DNA from: a virus
Direction: 5' to 3' (one strand)
DNA: 48,555 nucleotides
Virus record (IMG/VR): IMGVR_UViG_3300008807_000172
Location: 1 to 48,555 of that record
Shown here: positions 1-48,555 of the stretch, one piece after another
Position numbering within the stretch: position 1 is the first letter of the stretch
How the letters are laid out: each line of letters opens with the position of its first letter
Program-made: the position numbers and the translations under genes
Notes under the pieces: generated by a model
Told to the model about the DNA's origin: nothing
The model's input: only the letters and a program-made list of their open reading frames with translations
The model's database searches: none

Positions 1-99
1 CCAGATCAGCGCGCACTCCGTCGAGCCAACCATAGCCAGCCTTTCCCGCAACCTGCTCTCCCATGACGACAGGGGGCCGGCAGGCACGGATGAGGCGAA
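1..99. repeat. 99-bp terminal direct repeat, copy 1 (circularisation overlap)
   Basis: Read base by base: identical to 48457-48555. Confidence 0.95.
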
Positions 100-406
100 G
101 GAAGTCGGGCCACAGATGCCGTTCGTCGTCGACACCTCCGCCTTTGCCCGCGACCGAGAACGGCTGGCACGGGCAGGAGCCGGTCCAGAGGGGGCGGTCG
201 TCGGGCCATCCGGCCAGTCGAGCAGCGTAGGACCATCCGCCGATCCCGGCGAAGAAGTGACATTGGGTGAAGCCTCGCAGGTCATCGGCCTGCACCTCCT
301 TGATTGAGCGTTCGTCGACCACGCCGTCGGCGATGTGCCCGGCCCTGATCAGTTCGCGGAGCCAGGCCGCGGCGAAGGGGTCGATTTCGTTGTACCAGGC
401 GGCCAT
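1..406 (-). CDS. DNA (cytosine-5)-methyltransferase, N-terminal part; continues over the junction into 47567..48456
   Basis: Own translation from ATG 406: MAAWYNEIDPFAAAWLRELI, CHFFAGIGGW (motif I), SCPCQPFSVAG (motif IV), PPVVMGEQV (motif VI); ATGA overlap with upstream stop. Confidence 0.85.
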   Translation of the reverse strand, partial: MAAWYNEIDPFAAAWLRELIRAGHIADGVVDERSIKEVQADDLRGFTQCHFFAGIGGWSYAARLAGWPDDRPLWTGSCPCQPFSVAGKGGGVDDERHLWPDFLRLIRACRPPVVMGEQVAGKAGYGWLDGVRADL

Positions 407-3550: not shown

Positions 3551-3748
3551 TCAGGCGGCCTTCGGTTTGAGCAGATCGGCCGGCGCGATGGCGCCGTTGC
3601 TCCACTCGCAGATCTTGATGGCCAGCTCCAGGGTCGGCGTGCGCGTGCCGAGGCGCATCTGGGTGACGTAGGCCCGGCTCACGCCCAGCACCCCGGCCAC
3701 TTGCTTGTCGCTGACCCCCCGGTCCTTCATGTGCTCTGAAAGCGTCAT
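3551..3748 (-). CDS. Cro-like HTH regulator (first gene of leftward early operon)
   Basis: 65 aa from ATG 3748; VSDKQVAGVLGVSRAYVTQMRLG HTH; divergent from CI-like gene. Confidence 0.6.
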   Translation of the reverse strand: MTLSEHMKDRGVSDKQVAGVLGVSRAYVTQMRLGTRTPTLELAIKICEWSNGAIAPADLLKPKAA

Positions 3749-3757
3749 GGGGGAAAG

Positions 3758-3772
3758 GTAGCAGGGTGCTAC
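3758..3772. promoter_or_regulatory. Operator, inverted repeat GTAGCAGGGTGCTAC
   Basis: Perfect GTAGC-N5-GCTAC palindrome in CI/Cro intergenic region. Confidence 0.65.
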
Positions 3773-3773
3773 A

Positions 3774-3802
3774 TTGACACAAGCCCCAAAGATGTAGCTA
3801 AT
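3774..3802 (+). promoter_or_regulatory. Putative rightward promoter for CI-like gene
   Basis: TTGACA (3774-3779), 17-nt spacer, GCTAAT (3797-3802). Confidence 0.45.
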
Positions 3803-3808
3803 GGCTAC
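3794..3808. promoter_or_regulatory. Operator, inverted repeat GTAGCTAATGGCTAC
   Basis: Second GTAGC-N5-GCTAC palindrome, overlaps candidate -10 elements of both divergent promoters. Confidence 0.65.
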
Positions 3809-3849
3809 ACACTGTCGCACGCAATGTGGGCATACTGAAGGAGGTTGAA

Positions 3850-4194
3850 ATGACGCACCGGATAATCGAAATGGCCAAGGCCAACTTTCGTCGGCGGCAC
3901 TTTATAAAGGCGTGGCGCAAGCACCGCGGCTACACCCAGGAGAAGCTGGCCGAGATGATCAGCATCTCCCGGCCCTACCTGGCGCAGATCGAATCCGGCG
4001 CCCGCGACTACAGCCAGGATCTCCTCGAGGCCCTGTCCGAGGCGCTGCGGTGCGAGCCGGCCGACTTGATCATGCGCGACCCGTCGCAACAGGAACTGCT
4101 CTGGACCATCTACGACCAGCTCACGCCGGTGCAGCGCGAGCAGTTCATCGAGATGGCCACGCCCATCGCCCAGACGCTCAAAAAGCGCGCCTGA
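3850..4194 (+). CDS. CI-like XRE-family repressor (no peptidase domain)
   Basis: ATG 3850 with AAGGAGG 6 nt upstream; YTQEKLAEMISISRPYLAQIESG HTH. Confidence 0.7.
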   Translation: MTHRIIEMAKANFRRRHFIKAWRKHRGYTQEKLAEMISISRPYLAQIESGARDYSQDLLEALSEALRCEPADLIMRDPSQQELLWTIYDQLTPVQREQFIEMATPIAQTLKKRA

Positions 4195-4232
4195 TTCTTC
4201 CACGCCGCTGATTCGATAAGCCGCCACCACTC

Positions 4233-4256
4233 GGTGCGCGGCCGTCTTCGCGCACC
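4233..4256 (+). terminator. Hairpin after CI-like gene (weak T-tract)
   Basis: GGTGCGCG (4233-4240) / CGCGCACC (4249-4256), 8-nt loop. Confidence 0.4.
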
Positions 4257-4282
4257 TGGATTCTGCAAGGTGTAAACGCGAC

Positions 4283-4297
4283 GTTGCAAATAGCGAC
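4283..4297. promoter_or_regulatory. Operator-family site GTTGCAAATAGCGAC
   Basis: GTNGC-N5-GCNAC pattern upstream of TTGACA 4306-4311. Confidence 0.55.
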
Positions 4298-4305
4298 TCC
4301 CCCTG

Positions 4306-4334
4306 TTGACACGACGTAGCAAATAGCTACTGTT
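4306..4334 (+). promoter_or_regulatory. Putative promoter of QueD/DpdA operon
   Basis: TTGACA at 4306-4311; GCTACTGT region about 17 nt downstream; flanked by two operator-family sites. Confidence 0.45.
4316..4330. promoter_or_regulatory. Operator, inverted repeat GTAGCAAATAGCTAC
   Basis: Perfect GTAGC-N5-GCTAC palindrome overlapping the -10 region. Confidence 0.6.
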
Positions 4335-4518
4335 GGCGACAAAGGGGAAGACACATGACCACAACCAACCAACCCCCACATACCGCACAGACCGAAGGGC
4401 GGGAGGAACCCCTCGCCCGCCGCCCTGGAGCCCACCCAATGAGGGAGGGAAATCAGAACTTGAACGGAACAGAGTGCGCGGGCGGCGCTTCGCGTCCGCC
4501 GGAGCAGGCGGTCGTGCA

Positions 4519-4845
4519 ATGAGCGACATTCCCGCCCAAAGCCAGATCGAGGCCCTGACCGGCGTAGGCTGGACCTTCTGCGCCTCCCATCGAGACCCGA
4601 TCAGGCAAGAGCTTCACGGCCATTCCTACGAGGTTATCGCATGGTTCAAGGCCGGGCCCGACGCCCTGGTCCTGCAAGCCAAGCTGCGCATGGCGCTGGA
4701 GGCGTTCGATCACAAGACCTTGCCGGATGAACTGACCCGCGCGGAGGCTCTGGCCGGCGCCCTGATGCACTTGCTCGAAGCCGAGGGCGTGGAGGTCAAC
4801 CGGCCCCTGGAGCGGCTGTATGCCAAGGTGGGGCAGTGCGCGTGA
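4519..4845 (+). CDS. queD: QueD / 6-pyruvoyl-tetrahydropterin synthase-like protein (short, 108 aa)
   Basis: ATG 4519; FCASHRDPIRQELHGHSYEVIAWF matches the C..H...HGH.Y signature. Confidence 0.55.
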   Translation: MSDIPAQSQIEALTGVGWTFCASHRDPIRQELHGHSYEVIAWFKAGPDALVLQAKLRMALEAFDHKTLPDELTRAEALAGALMHLLEAEGVEVNRPLERLYAKVGQCA

Positions 4846-5531
4846 TCCATTACCACGGCACCCCGATAACCCCGACCGCCGTTATGCTGACGCTCGCCGG
4901 CAAGTGCTTCTGCGTGTCTCACATGCGGCCCGATCAGGTGCGTCTCTGTCACGAGATCGGCCAGTCAGTCATGCTGGACAACGGCGCCTTCAGCAAATGG
5001 AAGTCCGGCAAGGAAACCGACTGGCACGCCTATTACGCCTGGGCGGACGAGTGGCTTCACTACCCGACCACCTGGGCGGTGATCCCCGACGTGATCGACG
5101 CTGGCTCTCAGGAACAGGACGCCCTCATTCGGGAATGGCCGTTCGGCGAGAAGGGGGCACCAGTGTGGCACATGGATGAACCGATCCACCGCGCCCTGCG
5201 CCTTTTGGACGAACACCACCGCGTCTGTTTCGGCTCTACTGCTGAATATGCCGCGATCCTGTCGGATGCCTGGGTCGGTCGCATGGACCGGGTGTGGAAC
5301 GAGATCGCCAAGCGGCACCGCACCCCCACCGTCCACATGCTTCGTGGAATGCAGCTCAGCGGGCGGGAGTGGCCCTTTGCCTCGGTGGACAGCACCGACG
5401 TAGCCCAGAACCATAACCGTCCTCAGAACACGGCGCGCGCCATGGCCGACCGCTGGGACGCCGCTCAATGCCCGCCGGTCTGGGTCGGCCGTGCGTCTCA
5501 ACAAGACCTCTACGACAGCGAGGCCGCCTGA
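4836..5531 (+). CDS. dpdA: DpdA-like tRNA-guanine-transglycosylase-family protein (putative DNA 7-deazaguanine transglycosylase)
   Basis: VIHYHGTP, MLDNGAFS (cf. TGT DSGGFQ), AVIPDVI, FASVDSTD; GTG 4836, or GTG 4842 giving a GTGA overlap with QueD stop. Confidence 0.5.
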   Translation: MRVIHYHGTPITPTAVMLTLAGKCFCVSHMRPDQVRLCHEIGQSVMLDNGAFSKWKSGKETDWHAYYAWADEWLHYPTTWAVIPDVIDAGSQEQDALIREWPFGEKGAPVWHMDEPIHRALRLLDEHHRVCFGSTAEYAAILSDAWVGRMDRVWNEIAKRHRTPTVHMLRGMQLSGREWPFASVDSTDVAQNHNRPQNTARAMADRWDAAQCPPVWVGRASQQDLYDSEAA

Positions 5532-5603
5532 CGTGGCCGACCCGTCAGGGCGGACCACTCTCGAAGCCAGCAACCCCCAGGAACAACCATCAGAGAAGAA
5601 ACC

Positions 5604-5819
5604 ATGAGTGAGAAGACAGAAGGCCAACCTCTAACGGAAAGCGGGTGGAAGGCCACCCTGCTCAACGTGCTCGTCAATTGGCGCTTCAAGGGCATCACCC
5701 AATACACGAGCGGCTACGCGATCAACGTCACCGAACTCCGCCCGCTGGTCGATGCTCTTGCCGAGCGTCTTCTCTCCGCCTCCCCGACGCCCCCGGAAAG
5801 CGGGAAGAGCAATGACTGA
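5604..5819 (+). CDS. Hypothetical protein (71 aa)
   Basis: ATG with purine-rich upstream stretch; overlaps next gene start by 8 nt. Confidence 0.5.
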   Translation: MSEKTEGQPLTESGWKATLLNVLVNWRFKGITQYTSGYAINVTELRPLVDALAERLLSASPTPPESGKSND

Positions 5820-6036
5820 CGAAGAGAAGACCCCTCGGTTGGCTGGAATGTCACCAGAGCGGTACGCGGCGATCCTGTCGAGGCAGGAGCGGGACTGGCC
5901 CAAGCAACGGCAAGGAGCGGCTCAGGGAAACCCCTTCGCCACCCTTTGCCAGCACTGCTGCGGGCGTCACCCGCCGCCGAACGACGAGATTTGCCCGCAT
6001 GAGAGCATCGAACAACTGAAGGCGCGCACCCCATGA
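5812..6036 (+). CDS. Hypothetical Cys-containing protein (74 aa)
   Basis: Internal ATG 5812 of track ORF 5752..6036; CQHCCGRH...CPHE; ATGA coupling to next gene. Confidence 0.5.
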   Translation: MTDEEKTPRLAGMSPERYAAILSRQERDWPKQRQGAAQGNPFATLCQHCCGRHPPPNDEICPHESIEQLKARTP

Positions 6037-6773
6037 CCACCGCCGAACCAACCGATGCCGTGCTCTCGCCCCCGGAAAGCGGGGGGTGGCCGAGTGAGGA
6101 ACAACTGCACTTCGCCGTCAGCACGTTCCTCGCGACTTACAAGGGCAACAACGGCCTCGACGCGATGCGGCAGGCCATCGCCCTGTTCCCGAAAGACAGG
6201 GGGGGGGGATGGCGAGCGGCGCTGGAAACAGCGCAGGCCTACATCGACGAGCTTCCCCACGGCGAGAACTGCTTCCTTCTCAACGACGGTGGCGAGTTCG
6301 ACAGGTGCCGGTGTGGCAAGGACGCTATGGTCCAATACATCGAGGACGTTCTGGTCTTCGACATTACGCCGACGCCAAGTCAAATCCGGATTGACCCGCC
6401 CGCCCCCTCTCAGGAAGGGTGGCGAGACCTGTCCTGTGACGAGCAGAGGGCCTTGGCCGAGCGGATCGCCGGGAACATCGGCTACGTCCTCACGCCTGAG
6501 CCGCCGCACCCTGACAGTCCGCACACCCGTGCTGCCCCCTCTCTGGAAGGGGAAGGGGCTTTGCGGGAGGCGTTGGAAGGTGCGCTGCGCCTGCCGATCA
6601 TCATCGAAGAACAGATGGAGCTTGAGGACTGCGGCGGCGAGGCCGACCGTGAAGACCTCGAACGCTACCGGAAGGACCGCATCGCCATCCTGGCCAGCAT
6701 CCGGTCCGCGCTCTCCGCTCTCTCCACAAAGGAGGGGAAAGAAGAGGCTCTCCAAGGGTCAGAGCAGACCTAA
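6033..6773 (+). CDS. Hypothetical acidic protein (246 aa)
   Basis: Long ORF, translationally coupled; no motif recognised. Confidence 0.55.
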   Translation: MTTAEPTDAVLSPPESGGWPSEEQLHFAVSTFLATYKGNNGLDAMRQAIALFPKDRGGGWRAALETAQAYIDELPHGENCFLLNDGGEFDRCRCGKDAMVQYIEDVLVFDITPTPSQIRIDPPAPSQEGWRDLSCDEQRALAERIAGNIGYVLTPEPPHPDSPHTRAAPSLEGEGALREALEGALRLPIIIEEQMELEDCGGEADREDLERYRKDRIAILASIRSALSALSTKEGKEEALQGSEQT

Positions 6774-6864
6774 ACCATCCACCATATTCAGCGCATTTTA
6801 TCTTGAATGCGTTGGGCGCAAACCCGTTGTTTGCTATACTGTTTGCAGACGAGGACTATAGAAC

Positions 6865-7371
6865 ATGAACGCGATTTCTGCAACTGGATCACGCAGGCTG
6901 CTGGTGTGTGGCGGGCGTGACTTGTCAGACCCCGATCTGGTCTATCAGGCGCTCGACATGGTCCATGAGCGCAAGCCAATCGCCCTAGTGATCCACGGCG
7001 GTGCGCGCGGTGCGGATACGCTGGCCGGCGAATGGGCCGCCCTCCGTCGCATCCCGGTCTGTGTGTTCCCGGCCAACTGGGAACACGACGGAAAGGGGGC
7101 CGGTCCGATCCGCAACGCCGCCATGCTCGCCCACGGCATGCCGTCCGCAGTTGTCGCGTTCCCCGGAGGCAATGGGACGGCGGACATGGTGCGCCGCTGT
7201 CTGGAGGCAGGGCTACCGGTCTGGCAACCGACCCGCCGAGCCGACACCTTCTATGTCATTTTGACCTACGAGGACGAGGGCTTCGCCGAGCTGGCCGCAC
7301 ACGCCGCTCTGAACCCCGGAACGCTGTCTATCGAAGACATCGAAGGCAACGTCCTCTGGAGTCCGCAATGA
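6865..7371 (+). CDS. SLOG-superfamily DUF2493/YpsA-like protein
   Basis: LLVCGGRD...LVIHGGARGADTLAGEWA...GPIRNAAML...FPGGNGTADMV; GAGGAC RBS; AT-richer upstream region. Confidence 0.6.
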   Translation: MNAISATGSRRLLVCGGRDLSDPDLVYQALDMVHERKPIALVIHGGARGADTLAGEWAALRRIPVCVFPANWEHDGKGAGPIRNAAMLAHGMPSAVVAFPGGNGTADMVRRCLEAGLPVWQPTRRADTFYVILTYEDEGFAELAAHAALNPGTLSIEDIEGNVLWSPQ

Positions 7372-7721
7372 CCGACCCCCTCATCCAGGCTTACGCGCGA
7401 ATCATTGATCCACTGGCTTGGGAACTTCACGACGCGGGCGGAAGCACGGCGGCCGAAGCACTCGGCATCTCAACCGAACCTTCCATCTCCAAAGCCCAAG
7501 AGATAGCCCGCCTATCAGGGTGGAGGGAGCCGGAAGGCTGGAAACTCGTGCCGGTGGAAATCACGGACGAGATGGTCGATGACTTCAACGATGAACTGGA
7601 CATCGGCTACGAAGGCGACGTGCCCTGCGTGGACAACATCGAGCATCTTTGGCGCGTCATGTTGAAGGCCGCTCCCCTTCCCCCCGCTCCTGTGTTTTCA
7701 GAGGGGGCCGGGAATGGCTGA
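7368..7721 (+). CDS. Hypothetical protein (117 aa)
   Basis: ATG 7368 in ATGA overlap with SLOG gene stop. Confidence 0.5.
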   Translation: MTDPLIQAYARIIDPLAWELHDAGGSTAAEALGISTEPSISKAQEIARLSGWREPEGWKLVPVEITDEMVDDFNDELDIGYEGDVPCVDNIEHLWRVMLKAAPLPPAPVFSEGAGNG

Positions 7722-8085
7722 CCTGCCCCTTCGCCTCACGACCGCGGAAGTCTGCAGCCTGGCGCGCAAGGGGCGCAACTGGGTCGCGGCCGAGGTCAGG
7801 GCCGGGCGACTGCCGAAACCGGCGAGCGCCGGCCGCCCCAACGTGTACAATCGCGACGAGGTGTTGCGGGCCCTGGGTCTGCTGGAGTCCGCGTCGCCCG
7901 ATCGCAACCCATGGGACATTGACCCCGATGAGCTCGGTAAAATTCTATCTCGGCCAGTACGTCAGCGTTCGGCGCCGCAAGGACGGAAGCAGCCGCGTGC
8001 TGTTCGAGGTGCCGCCGGCGCGCCGCCCCTCTGGTTGGCCGCCGACAATTCCGCTCCCTCTCGATCGCGCCATCCGGAACGGTAA
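7714..8085 (+). CDS. xis: Excisionase/AlpA-like HTH protein; true 3' end uncertain
   Basis: LTTAEVCSLARKGRNWVAAEVRAGRLPKP...RPNVYNRDEVLRAL; frame stays open 158 nt into the integrase gene. Confidence 0.55.
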   Translation: MADLPLRLTTAEVCSLARKGRNWVAAEVRAGRLPKPASAGRPNVYNRDEVLRALGLLESASPDRNPWDIDPDELGKILSRPVRQRSAPQGRKQPRAVRGAAGAPPLWLAADNSAPSRSRHPER

Positions 8086-9076
8086 CCTGGCCGACGAATC
8101 CGAGGTCGCCGCCATTCGCAAGGATGCGGCCAAGCTGTATGCCCAGCTGACGCAGAACAAGGTCGGAGCCAGCAGGACGCCCGCCGGTTCTCGAAACATC
8201 CGCCAGTTGGTCCGCCAGTGGCAGACATCGTCGGCCTGGAACGATCTCAAGCCGCGCACCCAGAAGGGCTACGAGTGGCTGATCGGCCGCGTCCTGCAGT
8301 GGACCGACGCCATGGGCAATCCCGACCCCACGATGATCGGCAAGGATCACATCGAGGGCTTCCTGCGCACCTTCAACGACCGGCCGACGCTCAAGATCCA
8401 CATGCGCAAGGTCGTGCGCCTGATCATGGAGGAGGCCCGGCATGCGGGCTGGCGCACCGATAATCCTTGCGACCTGATCAAGATCAAGAAGCCCAAGGCC
8501 AAGGTCGGCGTCTGGGAGCAGGCCGACGTCGACCACTACGTCGAGGTGTGCGAGCGCGTCGGTCGCCGATCCATCGCCCTGGTCATCCTGCTGGAATGGG
8601 AGATCGGCCAGCGACTCACGGACGTGCGCGCCTTCCGTCAGGGCGCCGAGTACGACGCCGAGGCCGGCATGTTTCGCTTCGACCAGTCCAAGACCGAGAG
8701 CCGCGTTTCGATCCCCGTTTCCCCCAAGCTGCGCGCCATGCTGAAGGAGGCCGCCGACGGCGCCCTGTTCCTGTTCCGCGACGAGCGCACCGGCAAGGCC
8801 TACACCGAGCAACGCTTGTCCAAGATGTTCGCCGAGGTGCGGGACAACGACAACGCGGAGCGCGAGAAAGGGGGTGTCGCGCCATGGCGCTACCTGGTCC
8901 TCCGATGGCTCCGGCACAGCTGCGTTGTCCAGCTTGCGCGCGCTGGCTGCACCGTGCCCGAGATCGCCGCCATCACCGGCCACGCCCTCTCCTCGGTGAC
9001 CAGCATCCTCGAGTTCTATCTGCAGCGCGACAGCACCGTGGCCGAGAACGCACAGCGCAAACGGGGCCTGATTTAG
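7928..9076 (+). CDS. int: Tyrosine integrase
   Basis: ATG 7928; N-term SVKFYLGQYVSVRRRKDGS; C-term WLRHSCVVQLARAGCTVPEIAAITGHALSSVTSILEFYL catalytic region. Confidence 0.9.
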   Translation: MSSVKFYLGQYVSVRRRKDGSSRVLFEVPPARRPSGWPPTIPLPLDRAIRNGNLADESEVAAIRKDAAKLYAQLTQNKVGASRTPAGSRNIRQLVRQWQTSSAWNDLKPRTQKGYEWLIGRVLQWTDAMGNPDPTMIGKDHIEGFLRTFNDRPTLKIHMRKVVRLIMEEARHAGWRTDNPCDLIKIKKPKAKVGVWEQADVDHYVEVCERVGRRSIALVILLEWEIGQRLTDVRAFRQGAEYDAEAGMFRFDQSKTESRVSIPVSPKLRAMLKEAADGALFLFRDERTGKAYTEQRLSKMFAEVRDNDNAEREKGGVAPWRYLVLRWLRHSCVVQLARAGCTVPEIAAITGHALSSVTSILEFYLQRDSTVAENAQRKRGLI

Positions 9077-9262
9077 GAACCGATGCCGAACGTTTGTCAG
9101 ACGGGCGGCGCGGAATGAGTCTGATGGGTTGGAAAAATGCTAATGAAATCCGCGAGATAGAAGAAACGCTCACTGCTTCATGGGCGGATGAGGCCCATTG
9201 AAATCATTGAACATCGTCAGAAAATGTTGCACATAGCGACTTGAAACGTAAGGGATTGCGAG
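9077..9262. other. Putative attP / integrase arm-site region
   Basis: AT-richer non-coding DNA next to int; GTCWGAYGGG at 9096, 9119 and 9267; 15-mer ATGAGTCTGAYGGGT at 9115 and 9263. Confidence 0.4.
9226..9240. promoter_or_regulatory. Operator-family site GTTGCACATAGCGAC
   Basis: GTNGC-N5-GCNAC pattern 23 nt upstream of ORF 9263. Confidence 0.5.
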
Positions 9263-36031: not shown

Positions 36032-36046
36032 TTTGCTATATGCGAC
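36032..36046. promoter_or_regulatory. Operator-family site TTTGCTATATGCGAC
   Basis: NTNGC-N5-GCNAC pattern about 50 nt upstream of the 35981 start. Confidence 0.45.
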
Positions 36047-39932: not shown

Positions 39933-40528
39933 TCAAGCAAACCATTCTCAACCGCCTCTCCGGTGAAGTCATGTTCACCGCCGAGATTGACTGTAGCGCC
40001 GATGCTCTGCCTTCCGTAAAGCTGGGCCTCGCCGTTAAGGCGGCGGTGAAAGAGCGGGCCGACCTGTCGTGGGCCAACCTGTCGGGGGCCAACCTGTCGG
40101 GGGCCAACCTGTCGTGGGCCAACCTGTCGGGGGCCAACCTGTCGGGGGCCAACCTGTCGGGGGCCGACCTGTCGTGGGCCAACCTGTCGGGGGCCAACCT
40201 GTCGGGGGCCGACCTGTCGCGGGCCTACCTGTCGGGGGCCAACCTGTCGGGGGCCAAAGTCAACGGCGATCCCGTAGCCCGCCTTCTGGCGAGCGTCCAG
40301 CGGCTTATCGAGCCCTACGCCTTCCACGCTTTCGAGATGGAAGCGGGGGGCGTGAAGATCGCGGCCGGCTGTCGCTGGTTCTCGTGCGCCGAGTTCCGCG
40401 CCCACGTCGCCAGCAAATACCCAGACACTCCCAAGGCCGTCGAAACGCTGCGGATCATCGAGTTCATCGAAGGCCGGGCCTCTGACCTTGGTGTCGCCCT
40501 GGAGCCCGCCTCGGCTGTTGCCGCCTAA
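39929..40528 (+). CDS. Pentapeptide-repeat protein (199 aa)
   Basis: GTG 39929 (GTGA overlap); 13 consecutive A(D/N/Y)LS(G/W/R) pentapeptides plus a degenerate AKVNG unit, then a non-repeat C-terminal domain. Confidence 0.9.
40056..40250 (+). repeat. 13 tandem 15-bp units GGGCCAACCTGTCGG (near identical)
   Basis: Read directly; encodes the pentapeptide repeats. Confidence 0.95.
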
Positions 40529-41685: not shown

Positions 41686-41979
41686 ATGGTGAATCATCTA
41701 CATACCATAGTTCTCGCTGCGTCCGCGTTGCTGGTTGTCCAGAAGAACACGACCGCAGAGAACAAGGCCTGCCGCAAGCGCCGCAAGGCTGCCATCACTT
41801 ACCTGACGGACGAGGTCGCCCGGCCCCTGTCCGCACGCGATGACCCGCAGGCCCGTAGCGAGGCTGTCGAGTGGCTGTTACGGCAATGCCGGGCCTGTAG
41901 CCGCTGTCCAAAGCCGCTCAAGTCGCCAGGGCATACGTCCGCTTCAGCTGACCCCGCACGTCCTCGCGTACCTCGGTGA
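41686..41979 (+). CDS. Doubtful ORF (97 aa) in the convergent gap
   Basis: ATG 41686; N-terminal hydrophobic stretch; 3' end overlaps primase gene end by 62 nt. Confidence 0.25.
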   Translation: MVNHLHTIVLAASALLVVQKNTTAENKACRKRRKAAITYLTDEVARPLSARDDPQARSEAVEWLLRQCRACSRCPKPLKSPGHTSASADPARPRVPR

Positions 41980-44215
41980 CCATCTCGCCCTCGATCAGGG
42001 CGGCCACGATGGAGCGCACCCGGTTGGTGTCCAGGCGGCCCCGGATCTTGCGCGTCAGCTCGGCCTGCGTGATCCGACCCTTGCCTTCGGCGCCGCCCGC
42101 CTCGATCAGGCCCAGAACCATCTGCTGCTCGGCCTGACGGTCGTTCTCGCTCATGAACCGGCCCGTCTCGGCGATCATGCGCTCGGCCGACCATAGGGCC
42201 AGGTCGCGGCCCCAGGCCATGTCCTCGGCGGTGACGGCCGGCGCGTCTTGATCAATGCCGATCGCGCGGATCGTGGCCAGGCGAACGGCCATCTCGGCGG
42301 TGCGGGCGAGGAAGGATTCATCGGCCTCGCGGGACTCGATGTGCCGCCCCAACGCCTGATAGACCTCGCGTCCGCCCGGTCCCCAGGGCACGATGTGCGC
42401 GGGGGCGTCGGCGCCCAGGTTGTGGGCGGTGGCGTTGGCCAAGGCATTGCCGGCGTAGAAGATGCGGTCCAGCGCCGCCTTGATCGACTCGGGCAGGACG
42501 TTGCCATCGACGCTCGGATCAACCTCGGCCGGGCGCACCCGCGTGGAGATGACCAGGAAGCGGTTGAGGAATCCGTTGTGGACGTCGGCGCCCTGCAGCG
42601 CGCGATAGAACTCCTCCTGCGTGCTGGCGCCGTAGATCGACAGGGCCGGGCTGTGGATGATCCGGCTCGGCTCGTTGGCGTACTCCGGCGTCGGGAAGCT
42701 CTTGAACGAGATGCCCCAGGCCGTGCGCAGGATGCCGCTGATCGCCTGCTCGTGGCTGGACGAGCTCTTGCGGTTGTTGATCTTGGCCAGGAAGCTGCCG
42801 AACTCGTCCATGGCGCATAGCACCAGCGGGTGGCGGTCAAGCCGCTTGACGACCGACGAGTAGGACATGAACTGGCTGGGCCCATGCTCGCGCGGCATGA
42901 CCGCGGGCATGACCTGGTTGATCTGGTCCAGCGCGTGGTTCTTGCCCGCCCCCGTGGGCGCCAGCGCCAGCACGTACAGGTGCGTGGCCGAGCGCGTCGG
43001 GCCGGCGAACTTGCGGCCGGCGGCCGTGCCCACCAGCGTGAGCGCGGCGCCCAGGGCCAGGCCCGGCTGCGGCTTGCGGCCGGAGTCGGTGATCCAGTGG
43101 GTCAGGGCGCCGAGGAGGCCGGGAACCTGCAGGAGGTGGGGGGGAATCTCCTCGGAATCTATGCACGTTGACGCGACCTGTTCAGATTTTTCCGGAATCT
43201 GCACAGGTTCGGGAACAGGCGCAGGCGCCGGCGCCACAAACACCGGCTCCGCCCCCATATCCAACCGATCCTTCAGCCACCGGAACGCATCGTCGAGCGC
43301 CCAGTTGTTGGCCGCGCACACCAGGTCGAGCGGGCTGTAGGCCACGTCGGCGCCGAAGTCGCGGATGCCCTCGGGGTGGATCTTCAGGTTCTTCTTGCGC
43401 TTCTCCAGCCGCTCGCCGGTTCCGCTCGGGCGCCAGGTGGCGACGGCCTCGTATCCCCCGCGCGCCGGCCGCAGTCCGTACAGGTCGAGCGCCGGCACCC
43501 ATGCCGCCATGTTGCGCATGGCCGCGTCGTTGACCTCCTGCCAGATGCTCGGATCGTCATCGTGCCGCTCGAGCGGGCGGCGGCTGACGCGCGCGGCCTC
43601 GGCCACGTCCCCGCCCCAGCCCAGGTGCGCCAGCGTGTCCTCAAGCCGCTCCAGACAGGTCTCGTCGAACAGGGGCAACTCATGCGCGGCCACCGGCCCG
43701 GCCATCCAGCGGTAGGTGGGCCCGTGCGGGTGGACGGACGGCGGCATGACCGTCTGGCGCCCGGCCGCCAGCAGGTCGACGACCCGCTTGCCCTTGATGT
43801 TGTAGCCCTTGGACGTCAGCGTCGGCGGCGCACGGAAGAAGGCCGACAGGCCCTTGGCGCCGGTCTTGATCATCGGGCTGGCCGGAATGGCGGACCTGAT
43901 CTCGGCCACCTCGTCGGGGTCGTGGCTGTCGATGTCGATGACCAGCAGGCGGTGCGCGCCGATGGCCGTGCCCACGACCACGCCGACGTTCGCCTCGGCC
44001 CAAGACTTCCAGGCCGTCAACTCGAACACCGTCGGCGCCCGGTCGCGGAACTGCGGCCAGGCGGTCAGCGCGCGCCACCGCCCGTTCGACCGCTCGCCCG
44101 GCGCCTTGTCGCGCGGTAGGCAGGGGATCGGGTGGTAGCCCAGTGCGCACAGCTGCTCGTAGGCCTGGGCGAAGGGGGAGTCGTTGGGGGGTGACATCGA
44201 GGGACTCGGATTCAT
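41918..44215 (-). CDS. Bifunctional primase-polymerase (PrimPol) N-domain fused to DUF3987-type P-loop helicase
   Basis: LLVIDIDSHD, MPPSVHPHGPTYRW in N-domain; LALAPTGAGKN Walker A and LCAMDEFG Walker B in C-domain. Confidence 0.8.
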   Translation of the reverse strand: MNPSPSMSPPNDSPFAQAYEQLCALGYHPIPCLPRDKAPGERSNGRWRALTAWPQFRDRAPTVFELTAWKSWAEANVGVVVGTAIGAHRLLVIDIDSHDPDEVAEIRSAIPASPMIKTGAKGLSAFFRAPPTLTSKGYNIKGKRVVDLLAAGRQTVMPPSVHPHGPTYRWMAGPVAAHELPLFDETCLERLEDTLAHLGWGGDVAEAARVSRRPLERHDDDPSIWQEVNDAAMRNMAAWVPALDLYGLRPARGGYEAVATWRPSGTGERLEKRKKNLKIHPEGIRDFGADVAYSPLDLVCAANNWALDDAFRWLKDRLDMGAEPVFVAPAPAPVPEPVQIPEKSEQVASTCIDSEEIPPHLLQVPGLLGALTHWITDSGRKPQPGLALGAALTLVGTAAGRKFAGPTRSATHLYVLALAPTGAGKNHALDQINQVMPAVMPREHGPSQFMSYSSVVKRLDRHPLVLCAMDEFGSFLAKINNRKSSSSHEQAISGILRTAWGISFKSFPTPEYANEPSRIIHSPALSIYGASTQEEFYRALQGADVHNGFLNRFLVISTRVRPAEVDPSVDGNVLPESIKAALDRIFYAGNALANATAHNLGADAPAHIVPWGPGGREVYQALGRHIESREADESFLARTAEMAVRLATIRAIGIDQDAPAVTAEDMAWGRDLALWSAERMIAETGRFMSENDRQAEQQMVLGLIEAGGAEGKGRITQAELTRKIRGRLDTNRVRSIVAALIEGEMVTEVREDVRGQLKRTYALAT

Positions 44216-44616: not shown

Positions 44617-44885
44617 GGCGCCCTCCGCAGGCGCGGGTAGGCGAGCCCGTGGCGGCGCGCGTGCGCCTGGGCGCCGGTGACTACGGAGGAGTGGTCGCGA
44701 TGTAGCAGCTTCCCGATGCGGGTCACGGCGAATCGGCGGCGACCGTCACGCTCAACCGACATCAGGCGGAACATGGCCTCCTGCCGGGCGTGGGCCACTG
44801 TTCGGCGCTTGGTCTGCGACACCATTTCGGTAATGCTGACCCGGCGCTCGGCGGCGACCTGGGCGAGAATTTCGCGCATGGTCAT
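44613..44885 (-). CDS. DnaA domain IV-like HTH protein (90 aa)
   Basis: Only the last 90 aa of the 331-aa track ORF: RRTVAHARQEAMFRLM...IGKLLHRDHSSVVTG resembles DnaA C-terminal DNA-binding domain. Confidence 0.55.
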   Translation of the reverse strand: MTMREILAQVAAERRVSITEMVSQTKRRTVAHARQEAMFRLMSVERDGRRRFAVTRIGKLLHRDHSSVVTGAQAHARRHGLAYPRLRRAP

Positions 44886-45517
44886 GCCAGCACCGGGAAT
44901 TGCTCGACCACGATGTTCCAGCAGGCCTCGGCCACGGCCCGGTGCTCGGCCTGGGTCTCGGGGCCCATGCGCAGGTGGCAGTAGTGCAGCCACGAGCGCA
45001 GGGTGCCGGCCATGTACAGACGGCTGGGGGTCAGCCCTTCGGGTAGCAGCGCGCGGGCCTGCTCCTTCGCGATGCCCAGGCCAAGGGCCGCCTCGTACAG
45101 CCGCTTGCTGTGCTCGGCCTGACTGATCAGGGCGCGTCGCCACCAGTTCGCCACGGTCTCGTCGGCGCAGGGGAGCGAAGACTGCCGGTCGCTCGGGTGC
45201 CGCATGCGGCACTCGCGCTCGTGCGTCAGGGCGCCGACCGCCGCGTACCGCTGGCTGAACTCCTGAAACGAGAACGAGCGGTGCCGCAGGATCTGCCGGG
45301 CGATGTCCCTGGTCGTCTCGATCTCGATGGTCAGGCTGACCATCTCCAGAGGCGACCACTCCTTGCGCCGAATGAGTGACTTGATCAGCCGAGCGCCGGT
45401 GGCGTGGTTGTTCTGGTTCGCGGCGCTGGACACGCGGGCGCAGTAGGCCAGCAGTTGCTCCGCCCCCGCGACGCCCTCGACGACGGGGCGGCTGATGGCG
45501 ATGAGGCGGGCGGTCAT
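44882..45517 (-). CDS. thyX: FAD-dependent thymidylate synthase ThyX
   Basis: RHRSFSFQEFSQRY signature; ATG 45517 in ATGA overlap. Confidence 0.9.
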   Translation of the reverse strand: MTARLIAISRPVVEGVAGAEQLLAYCARVSSAANQNNHATGARLIKSLIRRKEWSPLEMVSLTIEIETTRDIARQILRHRSFSFQEFSQRYAAVGALTHERECRMRHPSDRQSSLPCADETVANWWRRALISQAEHSKRLYEAALGLGIAKEQARALLPEGLTPSRLYMAGTLRSWLHYCHLRMGPETQAEHRAVAEACWNIVVEQFPVLA

Positions 45518-45954
45518 GCGGCCACCGGCATCTCGGCCCGGCCCCGCCGCCGCTCGCATGGATCGTAGGTCGGGCGCGGGTTTTCGATAGCCTCCTCACA
45601 GGCGGCAACTCCCTGATCCGTGAGGAAGTAACCGAGCCCCCAACTCGTACCGATGGCGGGTCGGCCGATCTTGTTGCGCAGTTTGCAGACGAAGACGTCG
45701 ATGATCTTGCACTCGGGCTCGTCCATGCCGCCGTACATGGCGTCCATCAGGCCCTGCTTGGTGACCACCGCGCCGGATCGGGCGAACAGGGCATCCAGAA
45801 GGGTTGCTTCCTTGCCGGTCAGTCGCCAACGGTTCTTGAACGCGGCCATGCGCTCGCCGTCGCGGACCAGGTTGAGCTCGCGCCGGAGGTAGTCGTTCTC
45901 CTCCCTCAACGTCTCCAGCTTCTCGTATAGGTCGTTGGCTTGTTGCGGTGTCAT
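45514..45954 (-). CDS. OmpR/PhoB-type winged-helix DNA-binding protein with N-terminal coiled coil
   Basis: LTGKEATLLDALFARSGAVVTKQGLMDAMYG...IDVFVCKLRNKI...WGLGYFL. Confidence 0.65.
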   Translation of the reverse strand: MTPQQANDLYEKLETLREENDYLRRELNLVRDGERMAAFKNRWRLTGKEATLLDALFARSGAVVTKQGLMDAMYGGMDEPECKIIDVFVCKLRNKIGRPAIGTSWGLGYFLTDQGVAACEEAIENPRPTYDPCERRRGRAEMPVAA

Positions 45955-47573: not shown

Positions 47574-48555
47574 GCGCCGGTCTCCGCGTCCATGAAGGCG
47601 CCGATTACTTGCGCGGCTTCTTGCGGGACGATGGCGTTACCGAATCCGCGCCACTTAGCCACTCGGGCGGATACCCCATGAGCCAGCAGGGGAAAGCCGG
47701 GTTCGGGGACCCTGCGCTGCTTTTGATCGTGGCATAGGAGCCAATCGGCTCCAGCCCAGAACGAGCCGTTGCGTCGGTCAACGCCATGTGTGCGTTCAGG
47801 GCGACCTGCTGACCCTTGCTGATCCTGCGAAGCACGGTGTGTGGGTTCTCCGAATGCTTCTGAACGTCGCTCGCCTCCGGCGTTCCCCAAAAAGACCCGT
47901 GCATCTGCGCCGGCAACGGCTGGCCGCCCGCTCCGAAACTCTGGTTCGGCCCGCCCTTCTCTCCGTCCGTGGCGCGAGGTGTCGACCACTGCTTGATCGC
48001 GTTGGGCAACCCGATCTGCGCCTTGGTTCCATCCGGTCGCAAGCCCGTAGGTGATGTTCCCGGCGGGTTCGAACGGCCGCCCGCAAGATCGGCAGCGGCT
48101 GGGGTGGGCCACACTGACGAAAGCCGCTGCATCGACTCGCCCAAGTAGAGGGGTGTCGTGCGTTGGCCCGCGTTGCGCAGCCGGAAGTCCGCCGATTTCT
48201 GCAGCGTCTCGTCCGCGCGTGGGCGATCCACCCCGGTCGGAGTCGGCCAGTGGCTGAACGCCATATAATCGTTCAGGTTGGACATCCCGTGACCGTTCGC
48301 TTTGTGCTTCGCCACGTACTCCGGGGTGTGCGGCGGGAAGTGATCCCTCGCCGTTGGCGTCGGCCACGGCGCACCAGTAGAGCCGCTGTCTGATATGGGG
48401 GGCGTCCACGGCGCAAGCCGGGATATCGACGCCCCGGCTGGCGTAGTCTTCTCCCGCCAGATCAGCGCGCACTCCGTCGAGCCAACCATAGCCAGCCTTT
48501 CCCGCAACCTGCTCTCCCATGACGACAGGGGGCCGGCAGGCACGGATGAGGCGAA
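47567..48555 (-). CDS. DNA (cytosine-5)-methyltransferase, C-terminal part of the junction-spanning gene (frame A)
   Basis: VVMGEQV, APHIRQRLYW (motif VIII), FWAGADWLLC, GFGNAIVPQEAAQVI (motif X); middle part low-complexity, see findings. Confidence 0.75.
   Translation of the reverse strand, partial: RLIRACRPPVVMGEQVAGKAGYGWLDGVRADLAGEDYASRGVDIPACAVDAPHIRQRLYWCAVADANGEGSLPAAHPGVRGEAQSERSRDVQPERLYGVQPLADSDRGGSPTRGRDAAEIGGLPAAQRGPTHDTPLLGRVDAAAFVSVAHPSRCRSCGRPFEPAGNITYGLATGWNQGADRVAQRDQAVVDTSRHGRREGRAEPEFRSGRPAVAGADARVFLGNAGGERRSEAFGEPTHRASQDQQGSAGRPERTHGVDRRNGSFWAGADWLLCHDQKQRRVPEPGFPLLAHGVSARVAKWRGFGNAIVPQEAAQVIGAFMDAETGAC
47605..48489 (-). CDS. Same-strand alternate-frame ORF (frame B) inside the methyltransferase gene: W-x-T-P-x3-D repeat protein or TRD
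   Basis: WPTPTARD, WPTPTGVD, WPTPAAAD, WSTPRATDGEKGGPNQ, WGTPEASD, NPAFPCWLMGYPPEW; G/C-rich third positions; ATG 48489 preceded by GGGAAAGG. Confidence 0.45.
   Translation of the reverse strand: MVGSTECALIWREKTTPAGASISRLAPWTPPISDSGSTGAPWPTPTARDHFPPHTPEYVAKHKANGHGMSNLNDYMAFSHWPTPTGVDRPRADETLQKSADFRLRNAGQRTTPLYLGESMQRLSSVWPTPAAADLAGGRSNPPGTSPTGLRPDGTKAQIGLPNAIKQWSTPRATDGEKGGPNQSFGAGGQPLPAQMHGSFWGTPEASDVQKHSENPHTVLRRISKGQQVALNAHMALTDATARSGLEPIGSYATIKSSAGSPNPAFPCWLMGYPPEWLSGADSVTPSSRKKPRK
48457..48555. repeat. 99-bp terminal direct repeat, copy 2
   Basis: Identical to 1-99. Confidence 0.95.

Follow-up and report, generated by a model that had tools for sequence, protein, structure and literature searches.

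What does a temperate phage do with a gene for a DpdA-like protein and an overlapping gene for a QueD-like protein, when nothing else of the preQ0 pathway is encoded in its genome? The two genes open a run of seven plus strand open reading frames (ORFs) at positions 4519–7721 of the IMG/VR virus record IMGVR_UViG_3300008807_000172, the whole 48,555 nucleotide stretch of which is referred to here as the window. The sequence-only reading of this region had described the seven ORFs as one repressor-controlled island, possibly for a 7-deazaguanine-type DNA modification, in which the missing steps would be supplied either by host precursors or by different chemistry from a SLOG protein and the unassigned proteins. 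All seven ORFs are present with the motifs quoted for them (Table 1), they have coding-type GC content at third codon positions (GC3 0.69–0.83), and their junctions, including that with the gene that follows, are tight or overlapping (4845/4836, 5819/5812, 6036/6033, 7371/7368, and 7721/7714). From gene content, the island itself is a module of two genes, 4519–4845 and 4836–5531, with a variable cargo slot behind it, and the five downstream genes, that for the SLOG protein included, are no part of the module. The reading favoured here, to which we give somewhat better than even chances, is that the two-gene module inserts a deazaguanine into DNA and depends on the host for its precursor. Use of host precursors is also the better supported of the two options that had been offered.

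The description of the second gene product as DpdA-like is borne out by both profile and structure. It matches phrog_887, 'queuine tRNA-ribosyltransferase', with an E value of 7e-44, and the same PHROG is matched by the DpdA of phage CAjan (8e-96) and by gp23 of Salmonella phage BTP1 (2e-102). In hhalign, the family profile can be aligned to the DpdA of CAjan (E=1.6e-5, probability 79%), pairing LDNGAFS with LDSGAFS and SVDSTD with SCDSSS, and BTP1 gp23 finds CAjan DpdA by BLASTP (6e-8). By tblastn there is ~42% identity to the proteins of BTP1, SfI, SEN1, and SPN3UB, which are listed as DpdA in 'only DpdA' phages (Hutinet 2019, PMC6884629). The AlphaFold2 (AF2) model (pLDDT 92, pTM 0.89) is a TIM barrel of eight beta/alpha units and, among the predicted viral structures of BFVD, it matches phage 'queuine tRNA-ribosyltransferases' (E 1e-8 to 1e-5, template modelling (TM) score 0.55–0.67). 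The product of 4836–5531 is therefore placed in the phage DpdA family, among the 'singleton' type, and only this family link shows it to belong to the wider TGT superfamily.

There are 49 residues of the 231 that are invariant in the family, including D48 (LDNGAF), D85 (IPD), H112, G133, L169, and both D185 and D188 (VDSTD), while F52 is nearly invariant. In the model, these residues are predicted to lie at or just past the C-terminal ends of strands 3–8. D48 and D185 (VDS) align with the LDSGAF and CDS motifs of CAjan; D85 is invariant, but the CAjan Asp aligns three residues later. The active-site set of bacterial DpdA, D95, F99, D130, H181, G206/207, L236, and D256 (PMC10164549), would map by order and spacing onto D48, F52, D85, H112, G133, L169, and D185. 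The DpdA of the S. Montevideo Dpd system (PMC10164549) is also a TIM barrel, and its acid/base Asp, the Phe four residues later, an Asp, a His, the Gly loop, and the nucleophile Asp would have counterparts in the same order and with similar spacing in the window protein. The window protein is unlike it in being much smaller, in giving no sequence, PADLOC, or PDB match, and in having no DpdB ATPase or DpdC nearby. A relationship to DpdA3 was rejected at the sensitivity used. BLASTP shows no close relationship to the DpdA of phage phiLM21, even though there too a Vut_1 gene follows. Many of the invariant residues of the window protein are Trp. Among cultured phages of Caulobacter, Rhizobium, Pseudanabaena, and Microcystis the protein is 64–69% identical, and its conservation is unusually strong for a phage accessory gene.

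In the case of the first gene, the QueD/PTPS likeness seen in the sequence-only reading stands, while the signature of QueD is lacking. A profile of the QueD-like family finds nothing but PTPS/QueD chains in the PDB, it aligns with a canonical prophage QueD by hhalign (E=1e-6), and the AF2 model (pLDDT 91) matches E. coli QueD (4ntk) in Foldseek with E=3.5e-6, TM 0.78, and a root mean square deviation of 2.2 Å. With that enzyme (PTPS-I, 6-carboxytetrahydropterin synthase) it shares the T-fold, the three His that serve as zinc ligands, the Asp-His pair, and both Glu. H24, H33, H35, D64, and H65 are invariant in the family, and both of the Glu that bind the 2-amino-4-oxo ring are conserved. At the position of the QueD CxxxHGH motif, however, the window protein has RQELHGH, so that the catalytic Cys is missing, and the loop that bears this Cys in QueD is ~6 residues shorter. 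Unlike QueD, it falls below the cut-offs of the family models, with E=7e-4 and 20.0 bits against a gathering score of 22.4 for Pfam PF01242 and 14.7 bits against a cut-off of 89.25 for NCBIfam TIGR03367, and its relatives are found beside this clade of DpdA wherever their context was examined.

The loss of the Cys is not peculiar to the window. When searched exhaustively with its profile, the family comprises 299 representative clusters at E<=1e-3, 169 of them at E<=1e-10, and nearly all are of ~100 aa. The family is discrete, and canonical QueDs are not among the 299. The published signatures are CxxxHGH for QueD, CxxxxxHGH for PTPS-II, and ExxHGH for PTPS-III (PMC5041015). Motifs were counted in the 144 members with a recognisable HGH: HGH itself is seen in 143/144, a Cys at the QueD position in 2/144, the PTPS-III Glu (position -3, where Gly predominates) in 3/144, and the PTPS-II Cys (position -6) in 0/144. 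Identity as PTPS-II or PTPS-III was rejected, as these signatures are lacking, and identity as DpdL was rejected as well, with an hhalign probability of 0.2% and no LxxxHRHxF motif. Judged by its residues, the protein has the scaffold of QueD yet, by the defining signature, is no QueD. The Cys-less mini-QueD of phage DMCA is labelled '6-carboxytetrahydropterin synthase' in GenBank.

The company kept by this DpdA clade was read from 127 loci (given by L number where needed), 80 of them viral and 47 bacterial, each of which encodes a relative of the DpdA-like protein; 106 had enough flank for partner counts. Where hosts are named they are mainly Alphaproteobacteria (Brevundimonas, Methylobacterium, Bosea, Rhizobiales, Sphingomonadaceae), with Betaproteobacteria and some Actinomycetota. 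The best match among these named hosts is in Brevundimonas, at 79% identity, and this locus has the same type of xis and int as the window. A gene for a Vut_1/YhhQ-type membrane protein is directly adjacent in 48/106; it is recognised by PF02592 (4e-10, above threshold) and belongs to phrog_4899, the PHROG of the 'putative preQ0 transporter' of CAjan. The Cys-less QueD-like gene is adjacent in 18/106, where it usually overlaps the start of the DpdA-like gene. The two partners are never found together (0/106), and neither is present in 39/106. In three loci (L066, L112, L124) the adjacent position is held by a canonical QueD with the motif HKCxxxHGH, and in a Rhizobiales prophage from a metagenome-assembled genome (L107:6035-7613) genes for a radical-SAM QueE and for a canonical QueD (CSRMHGH) come after the DpdA-like gene. 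There is no QueC in the flank read of this prophage, and QueD, QueE, and DpdA alone would stop at 7-carboxy-7-deazaguanine (CDG). When the look-up was reversed, starting from QueD-like proteins, a DpdA-like gene was adjacent in 3/3 contexts.

The DpdA-like proteins that have a QueD-like partner and those that have a transporter partner share near-identical catalytic motifs. Only three residues track the partner type (34, 141, 163), all peripheral and conservative, with no sign of a change in specificity. Near-identical catalytic cores across the partner types favour one common base, and this in turn favours a role for the QueD-like protein on the supply side. A further small protein of ~87 aa (phrog_37496) adjoins the DpdA-like gene in L036, L041, L056-L059, L102, L105, and L121 (for example L059:4344-4607). 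It nearly always occurs with the YhhQ-like gene, no Pfam model detects it, and by eye it has QueF-like motifs (CP..G, VE..L, YQED).

As in the sequence-only reading, no FolE, QueC, or QueE was found in this genome. A tblastn search of the window with FolE, QueD, QueC, QueE, and YhhQ of CAjan gave nothing below E=0.5, and Pfam, run on 20 non-structural ORFs of the window, found no FolE, QueC, QueE, or YhhQ. The preQ0 pathway in the window genome is incomplete. That this is unusual was an overstatement, given that phages with DpdA only were the largest group of DpdA phages in the 2019 survey (76/182; Hutinet 2019, PMC6884629), relatives of ~42% identity to the window protein among them. The idea that such phages use a host or imported precursor was described in the same survey (PMC6884629).

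These observations can be joined in a mechanism in which the two genes, probably coupled in translation, would be expressed from an early operon, probably under the control of the repressor, which stretches from the immunity region to xis and int. The host FolE-QueD-QueE-QueC pathway would provide the base. The DpdA-like barrel would exchange guanine in DNA for this 7-deazaguanine, most likely preQ0 or preQ1. If TGT and bacterial DpdA are a guide, D48 would be the acid/base and D185 the nucleophile. The QueD-like T-fold protein would act on the supply side, where it may feed, channel, or bind a pterin or 7-deazaguanine intermediate; a protein without the Cys may use His65 as its base, may bind or channel an intermediate, or may catalyse another reaction altogether. 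The YhhQ-type importer of sister phages would fill the same role, so that the partner gene, of either type, would raise the supply of precursor. Recurrent linkage of the DpdA-like gene to a preQ0-type importer, to QueD, and to QueE would be expected for a consumer of a 7-deazaguanine base. Host supply has a parallel in CAjan, where folE and queC mutants lose the modification signal and the residual signal is ascribed to host-derived preQ0 (PMC7544227).

Several results weigh against host-fed insertion of a deazaguanine. Against the PDB, Foldseek matches the DpdA-like model to generic TIM barrels only, with the archaeal enzyme arcTGT (1j2b) 14th in rank (E=0.045), and the PDB matches of its sequence, singly or as a profile, were rejected as chance (a nanobody, T4 polynucleotide kinase, and TIM). 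It is not matched by the Pfam TGT model (PF01702) at E<=0.1, nor by NCBIfam or PADLOC, and there is no CxCxxC zinc motif after strand 8. Among the DpdA-only phages that have been tested, Orion has no deazaguanine and 7-11 has 2'-deoxy-7-amido-7-deazaguanosine (dADG) at 0.02% of Gs (PMC6884629). QueD without its Cys is reported to be inactive (PMC10516641), and a plain role as an 'extra QueD' therefore needs a different chemistry. The exclusivity of the partners is partly, not wholly, an effect of lineage, as the QueD-like state is concentrated in one clade and is also found elsewhere in the tree.

The missing Cys raises the alternative that the base inserted by the DpdA-like enzyme is a different one, which the QueD paralogue would produce from an intermediate of the host, for example after decarboxylation of CDG, as proposed for DpdL, or after Zn-assisted hydration of the preQ0 nitrile to 7-amido-7-deazaguanine (ADG). 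The T-fold enzyme QueF-L acts on tRNA after insertion of the base, and by analogy the QueD-like protein might act on a base already inserted; by either route the outcome would be an undescribed or unexpected DNA modification. A different base is considered unlikely, though several points speak for it: the Cys is absent throughout the family while the Zn ligands, the Asp-His pair, and both ring-binding Glu are kept, the family is discrete with the canonical QueDs outside it, and QueF-L is a second-tier fold match of the model. There is precedent in DpdL, a Cys-less QueD paralogue for which CDG decarboxylase function is proposed (PMC10516641), and the DpdA-only phage 7-11 was unexpectedly found to carry dADG (PMC6884629). 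Set against these are the lack of similarity to DpdL itself, the catalytic motifs that are near-identical with either partner and so argue for the same base, the presence of a canonical QueD at the same position in some loci, and the exclusivity with a precursor importer, which suggests supply rather than tailoring. It is equally doubtful that the Cys-less paralogues of ~100 aa are a new enzyme, one that turns an intermediate of the host Q pathway into a base uncatalogued in DNA, or that works by new metal-dependent chemistry; if this were true, the base would be put into the DNA of these widespread temperate phages and prophages themselves, and possibly into that of the lysogen.

No better odds are given to a functionally diverged singleton DpdA that brings about no appreciable modification of phage DNA, and which might instead have host tRNA or host DNA as its target, tie up or drain the precursors of queuosine, or work against a defence of the host, with the QueD-like protein as a non-catalytic, base-binding partner. 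Singleton DpdAs fall in separate network clusters, for which functional divergence has been raised, and Orion is unmodified (Hutinet 2019, PMC6884629); the absence of a specific TGT or DpdA fold match in the PDB and of the Zn subdomain motif would agree with this, the identity of about 65-70% across alphaproteobacterial and cyanobacterial phages suggests an unusually constrained interaction, and the 10-nt gene overlap suggests a stoichiometric complex. However, the Asp positions for acid/base and nucleophile and the other active-site equivalents are invariant, a consumer of bases would fit the way in which the gene is found, time and again, beside those for a preQ0 transporter, QueD, and QueE, and nothing here points to tRNA, the barrel of 231 aa having neither a PUA domain nor another RNA-binding extension. 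Very improbable, by comparison, is the proposal that all seven genes make up one pathway in which the SLOG protein and the unassigned proteins replace FolE, QueC, and QueE. The genes do lie on one strand, tightly packed between the repressor and xis/int, and SLOG/LOG-type folds (PF10686 and relatives) bind nucleotides or bases. The assignment of the SLOG protein to DUF2493 is confirmed, yet a SLOG gene is found near the DpdA-like gene in only two of the 127 loci (L061 and L068), non-adjacent in both, and in 0/47 genomic loci; the 71, 74, 246, and 117 aa proteins recur in none. In the nearest relatives (DpdA-like protein 90% and 79-80% identical) only 0-0.6 kb separates the module from the integrase. 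In L009 and L013 the slot that precedes xis/int measures ~0.5 kb; in the prophage L085 of Brevundimonas diminuta it is filled by 3.6 kb of genes unrelated to those of the window, and here it holds five genes. Because the cargo proteins do not recur in related loci and the content of the slot varies, the island is read as a two-gene module with cargo, and the seven-gene pathway is largely refuted by synteny. PADLOC matched none of eight proteins, and the cargo genes have no family match beyond those in Table 1; the profile searches that had been suggested for the 71, 74, and 246 aa proteins gave nothing more than one marginal PHROG. This hypervariable slot resembles the 'ea' cargo region of lambdoid phages.

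Host-fed insertion of a deazaguanine by the module can also be set beside systems already described. The DpdA-only phages (group 3, Hutinet 2019, PMC6884629) include BTP1 (SIU02687), SfI (YP_009147480), SEN1, SPN3UB, HK106, and 7-11. The window protein is like theirs in belonging to phrog_887, with ~42% identity over 82% of the protein, in having a temperate carrier without a phage preQ0 pathway, and in being encoded in the early region between recombination/immunity genes and xis-int. It is unlike them in falling in a separate and very conserved clade, known here from prophages and phages of Alpha- and Betaproteobacteria, cyanobacteria, and some actinobacteria, whose members mostly have either a YhhQ-like importer or a gene of the QueD type as partner. 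In BTP1, the only enterobacterial locus inspected, no such partner is annotated beside the gene. The DpdA of CAjan (DpdA1), which is required experimentally for dPreQ0, is of the same PHROG and shares the LD(S/N)GAFS and (C/V)DS motifs, and CAjan encodes a phrog_4899 preQ0 transporter like the one beside sister copies of the window gene. It is, however, 306 aa long and only ~22% identical to the window protein, and the window has only the Cys-less QueD-like gene. DpdL of phage phiST (CGPG_00067, PMC10516641) is also a Cys-less QueD-type protein beside a phage DpdA, with the motif LxxxHRHxF as against xxxxHGH(S/T)(Y/W) in the window protein, and there is no detectable profile similarity between the two. 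The phages with DpdL encode FolE, QueD, and QueE as well, and their DpdA is DpdA3, for which no relationship to the window protein was seen at the sensitivity used.

The genome that carries the module has a high GC content (~67%) and an exact direct repeat of 99 bp at 1-99 and 48457-48555. As this repeat is present at both contig ends, the window represents the entire genome, either circular or terminally redundant, with a length of ~48,456 bp (~48.46 kb). The phage, of ~48.5 kb, is temperate, and its host is probably a member of the Caulobacterales or a related alphaproteobacterium. Structural and replication genes are on the minus strand, while all genes of the region in question are on the plus strand, flanked on one side by a divergent pair of helix-turn-helix (HTH) genes and on the other by an excisionase-like gene and a tyrosine integrase (Table 1). 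Nothing among phage genomes was matched by 4300-9100 in megablast.

Table 1. Features of the module and the region around it (positions in the window)
Feature	Position	Strand	Evidence and remarks
Cro-like HTH gene	3551..3820	-	HTH_3 E=2.6e-7; phrog_35; likely start an internal Met near 3746
Perfect TAGC-N5-GCTA palindromes, candidate operators	3759-3771, 3795-3807		Divergent cro/cI intergenic region
CI-like XRE/HTH_3 repressor candidate	3826..4194	+	PF01381 E=2.4e-15; repressor PHROGs
Palindromes, imperfect and perfect	4284-4296 (imperfect), 4317-4329 (perfect)		Either side of TTGACA 4306-4311, within the 325 bp that precede the QueD-like gene
Cys-less QueD/PTPS-fold protein, 108 aa	4519..4845	+	H24, H33, H35 Zn ligands; D64-H65 pair; E76; R95-P96-x-E98
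DpdA-family TGT-like TIM-barrel protein, 231 aa	4836..5531	+	10-nt overlap with QueD-like gene
71-aa ORF	5604..5819	+	No family match; 0/127 related loci; variable cargo
74-aa ORF	5812..6036	+	Marginal phrog_4283 E=0.009; 0/127 loci; variable cargo
246-aa ORF	6033..6773	+	No family match; 0/127 loci; variable cargo
SLOG (YAcAr/DUF2493) protein, 168 aa	6865..7371	+	PF10686 74.2 bits (cut-off 28.2), E=7e-21; phrog_289; independent accessory gene
117-aa ORF	7368..7721	+	C-terminal half weakly like phrog_12449 and phrog_5913, E~1e-4; 0/127 loci
Excisionase-like HTH_17 ORF	7714..8085	+	PF12728 E=0.001
Tyrosine integrase	7928..9076	+	Likely start at MSSVKF; homologues E=1e-127 (L009) and 7e-112 (Brevundimonas diminuta prophage L085)

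The Cro-like gene leads a leftward operon of RusA, an AAA_24 ATPase, and DUF669, while the repressor candidate shares its strand with the module and the integrase, and its homologues are found upstream of the module in L005-L009. The pattern TAGC-N5-GCTA has 14 matches where 5.05 would be expected, and none of 100 shuffles reaches 14; the copies are concentrated at the immunity region and ahead of the module. Together with TTGACA, the palindromes within 4284..4329 are a candidate for a repressible PL-like promoter/operator, proposed from the palindromes alone. Of the repressor-controlled operon that had been claimed, the repressor-like gene upstream and the operator-like palindromes were found, and control of the module by the repressor is plausible on their account; read-through from the cI gene in the lysogen may be an alternative route of expression. 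A simple scan for promoters and terminators found sites no more often than chance, and none in the 4194-4519 gap; a search of Rfam (E<=5) upstream of the module, for instance for a preQ1 riboswitch, gave chance matches only. Other palindromes of this type are seen at 9227-9239, after the integrase, and at 36033-36045, near 36 kb. The layout is that of the early-left operon of lambda and P22, which also runs from the immunity region to xis/int, and in BTP1 the homologue of the DpdA-like gene sits in exactly this part, the 'ea' region. In L009, L013, and L085 a homologue of the excisionase-like ORF comes just after the DpdA-like gene, and in L001 the product at the position of the integrase carries PF00589.

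The rest of the genome had been said to add a C5 DNA methyltransferase and ThyX. ThyX is confirmed (44882-45559, minus strand; PF02511, 7e-39), while the methyltransferase was read from the letters only. When the ends are joined (47605-48555 and 1-406, minus strand) there is a single ORF of 490 aa with an N-terminus (MAAWYNEIDPFAAAWL...) that looks like a C5 DNA methyltransferase; the C-terminal part of this putative enzyme, when searched alone, has no match in Pfam. ThyX and an SNF2-type helicase have a winged-helix Trans_reg_C protein (45514-45954) between them, and a Prim-Pol/DUF3987 primase is at 41918-44215 on the minus strand. Among the 20 non-structural ORFs, Pfam identified ThyX, Prim-Pol, the helicase, RusA, the AAA_24 ATPase, and a lysozyme. 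No tRNAs were found. At 40056-40257 a 15-bp unit (GGGCCAACCTGTCGG) is repeated 13.5 times with 93% identity, and may represent iterons or a 5-aa peptide repeat (LAPDR, minus strand).

DpdA beside a Vut_1 gene was already visible in phiLM21, which is listed in the 2019 survey (Hutinet 2019, PMC6884629). In the literature searched, the conserved clade, the alternation of importer and QueD-type gene, and the Cys-less mini-QueD subfamily were not found. The clade provides natural genetic evidence of a connection between singleton DpdAs and precursor supply for deazaguanines, and it defines a discrete subfamily of Cys-less QueD, the signature of which would set its chemistry apart from that of QueD. 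Both genes are carried by a cultured representative, Caulobacter phage DMCA on strain CB15, which puts the module within reach of a direct test. Activity of the module in lysogens, should there be any, would be relevant to the marking of host DNA by prophages.

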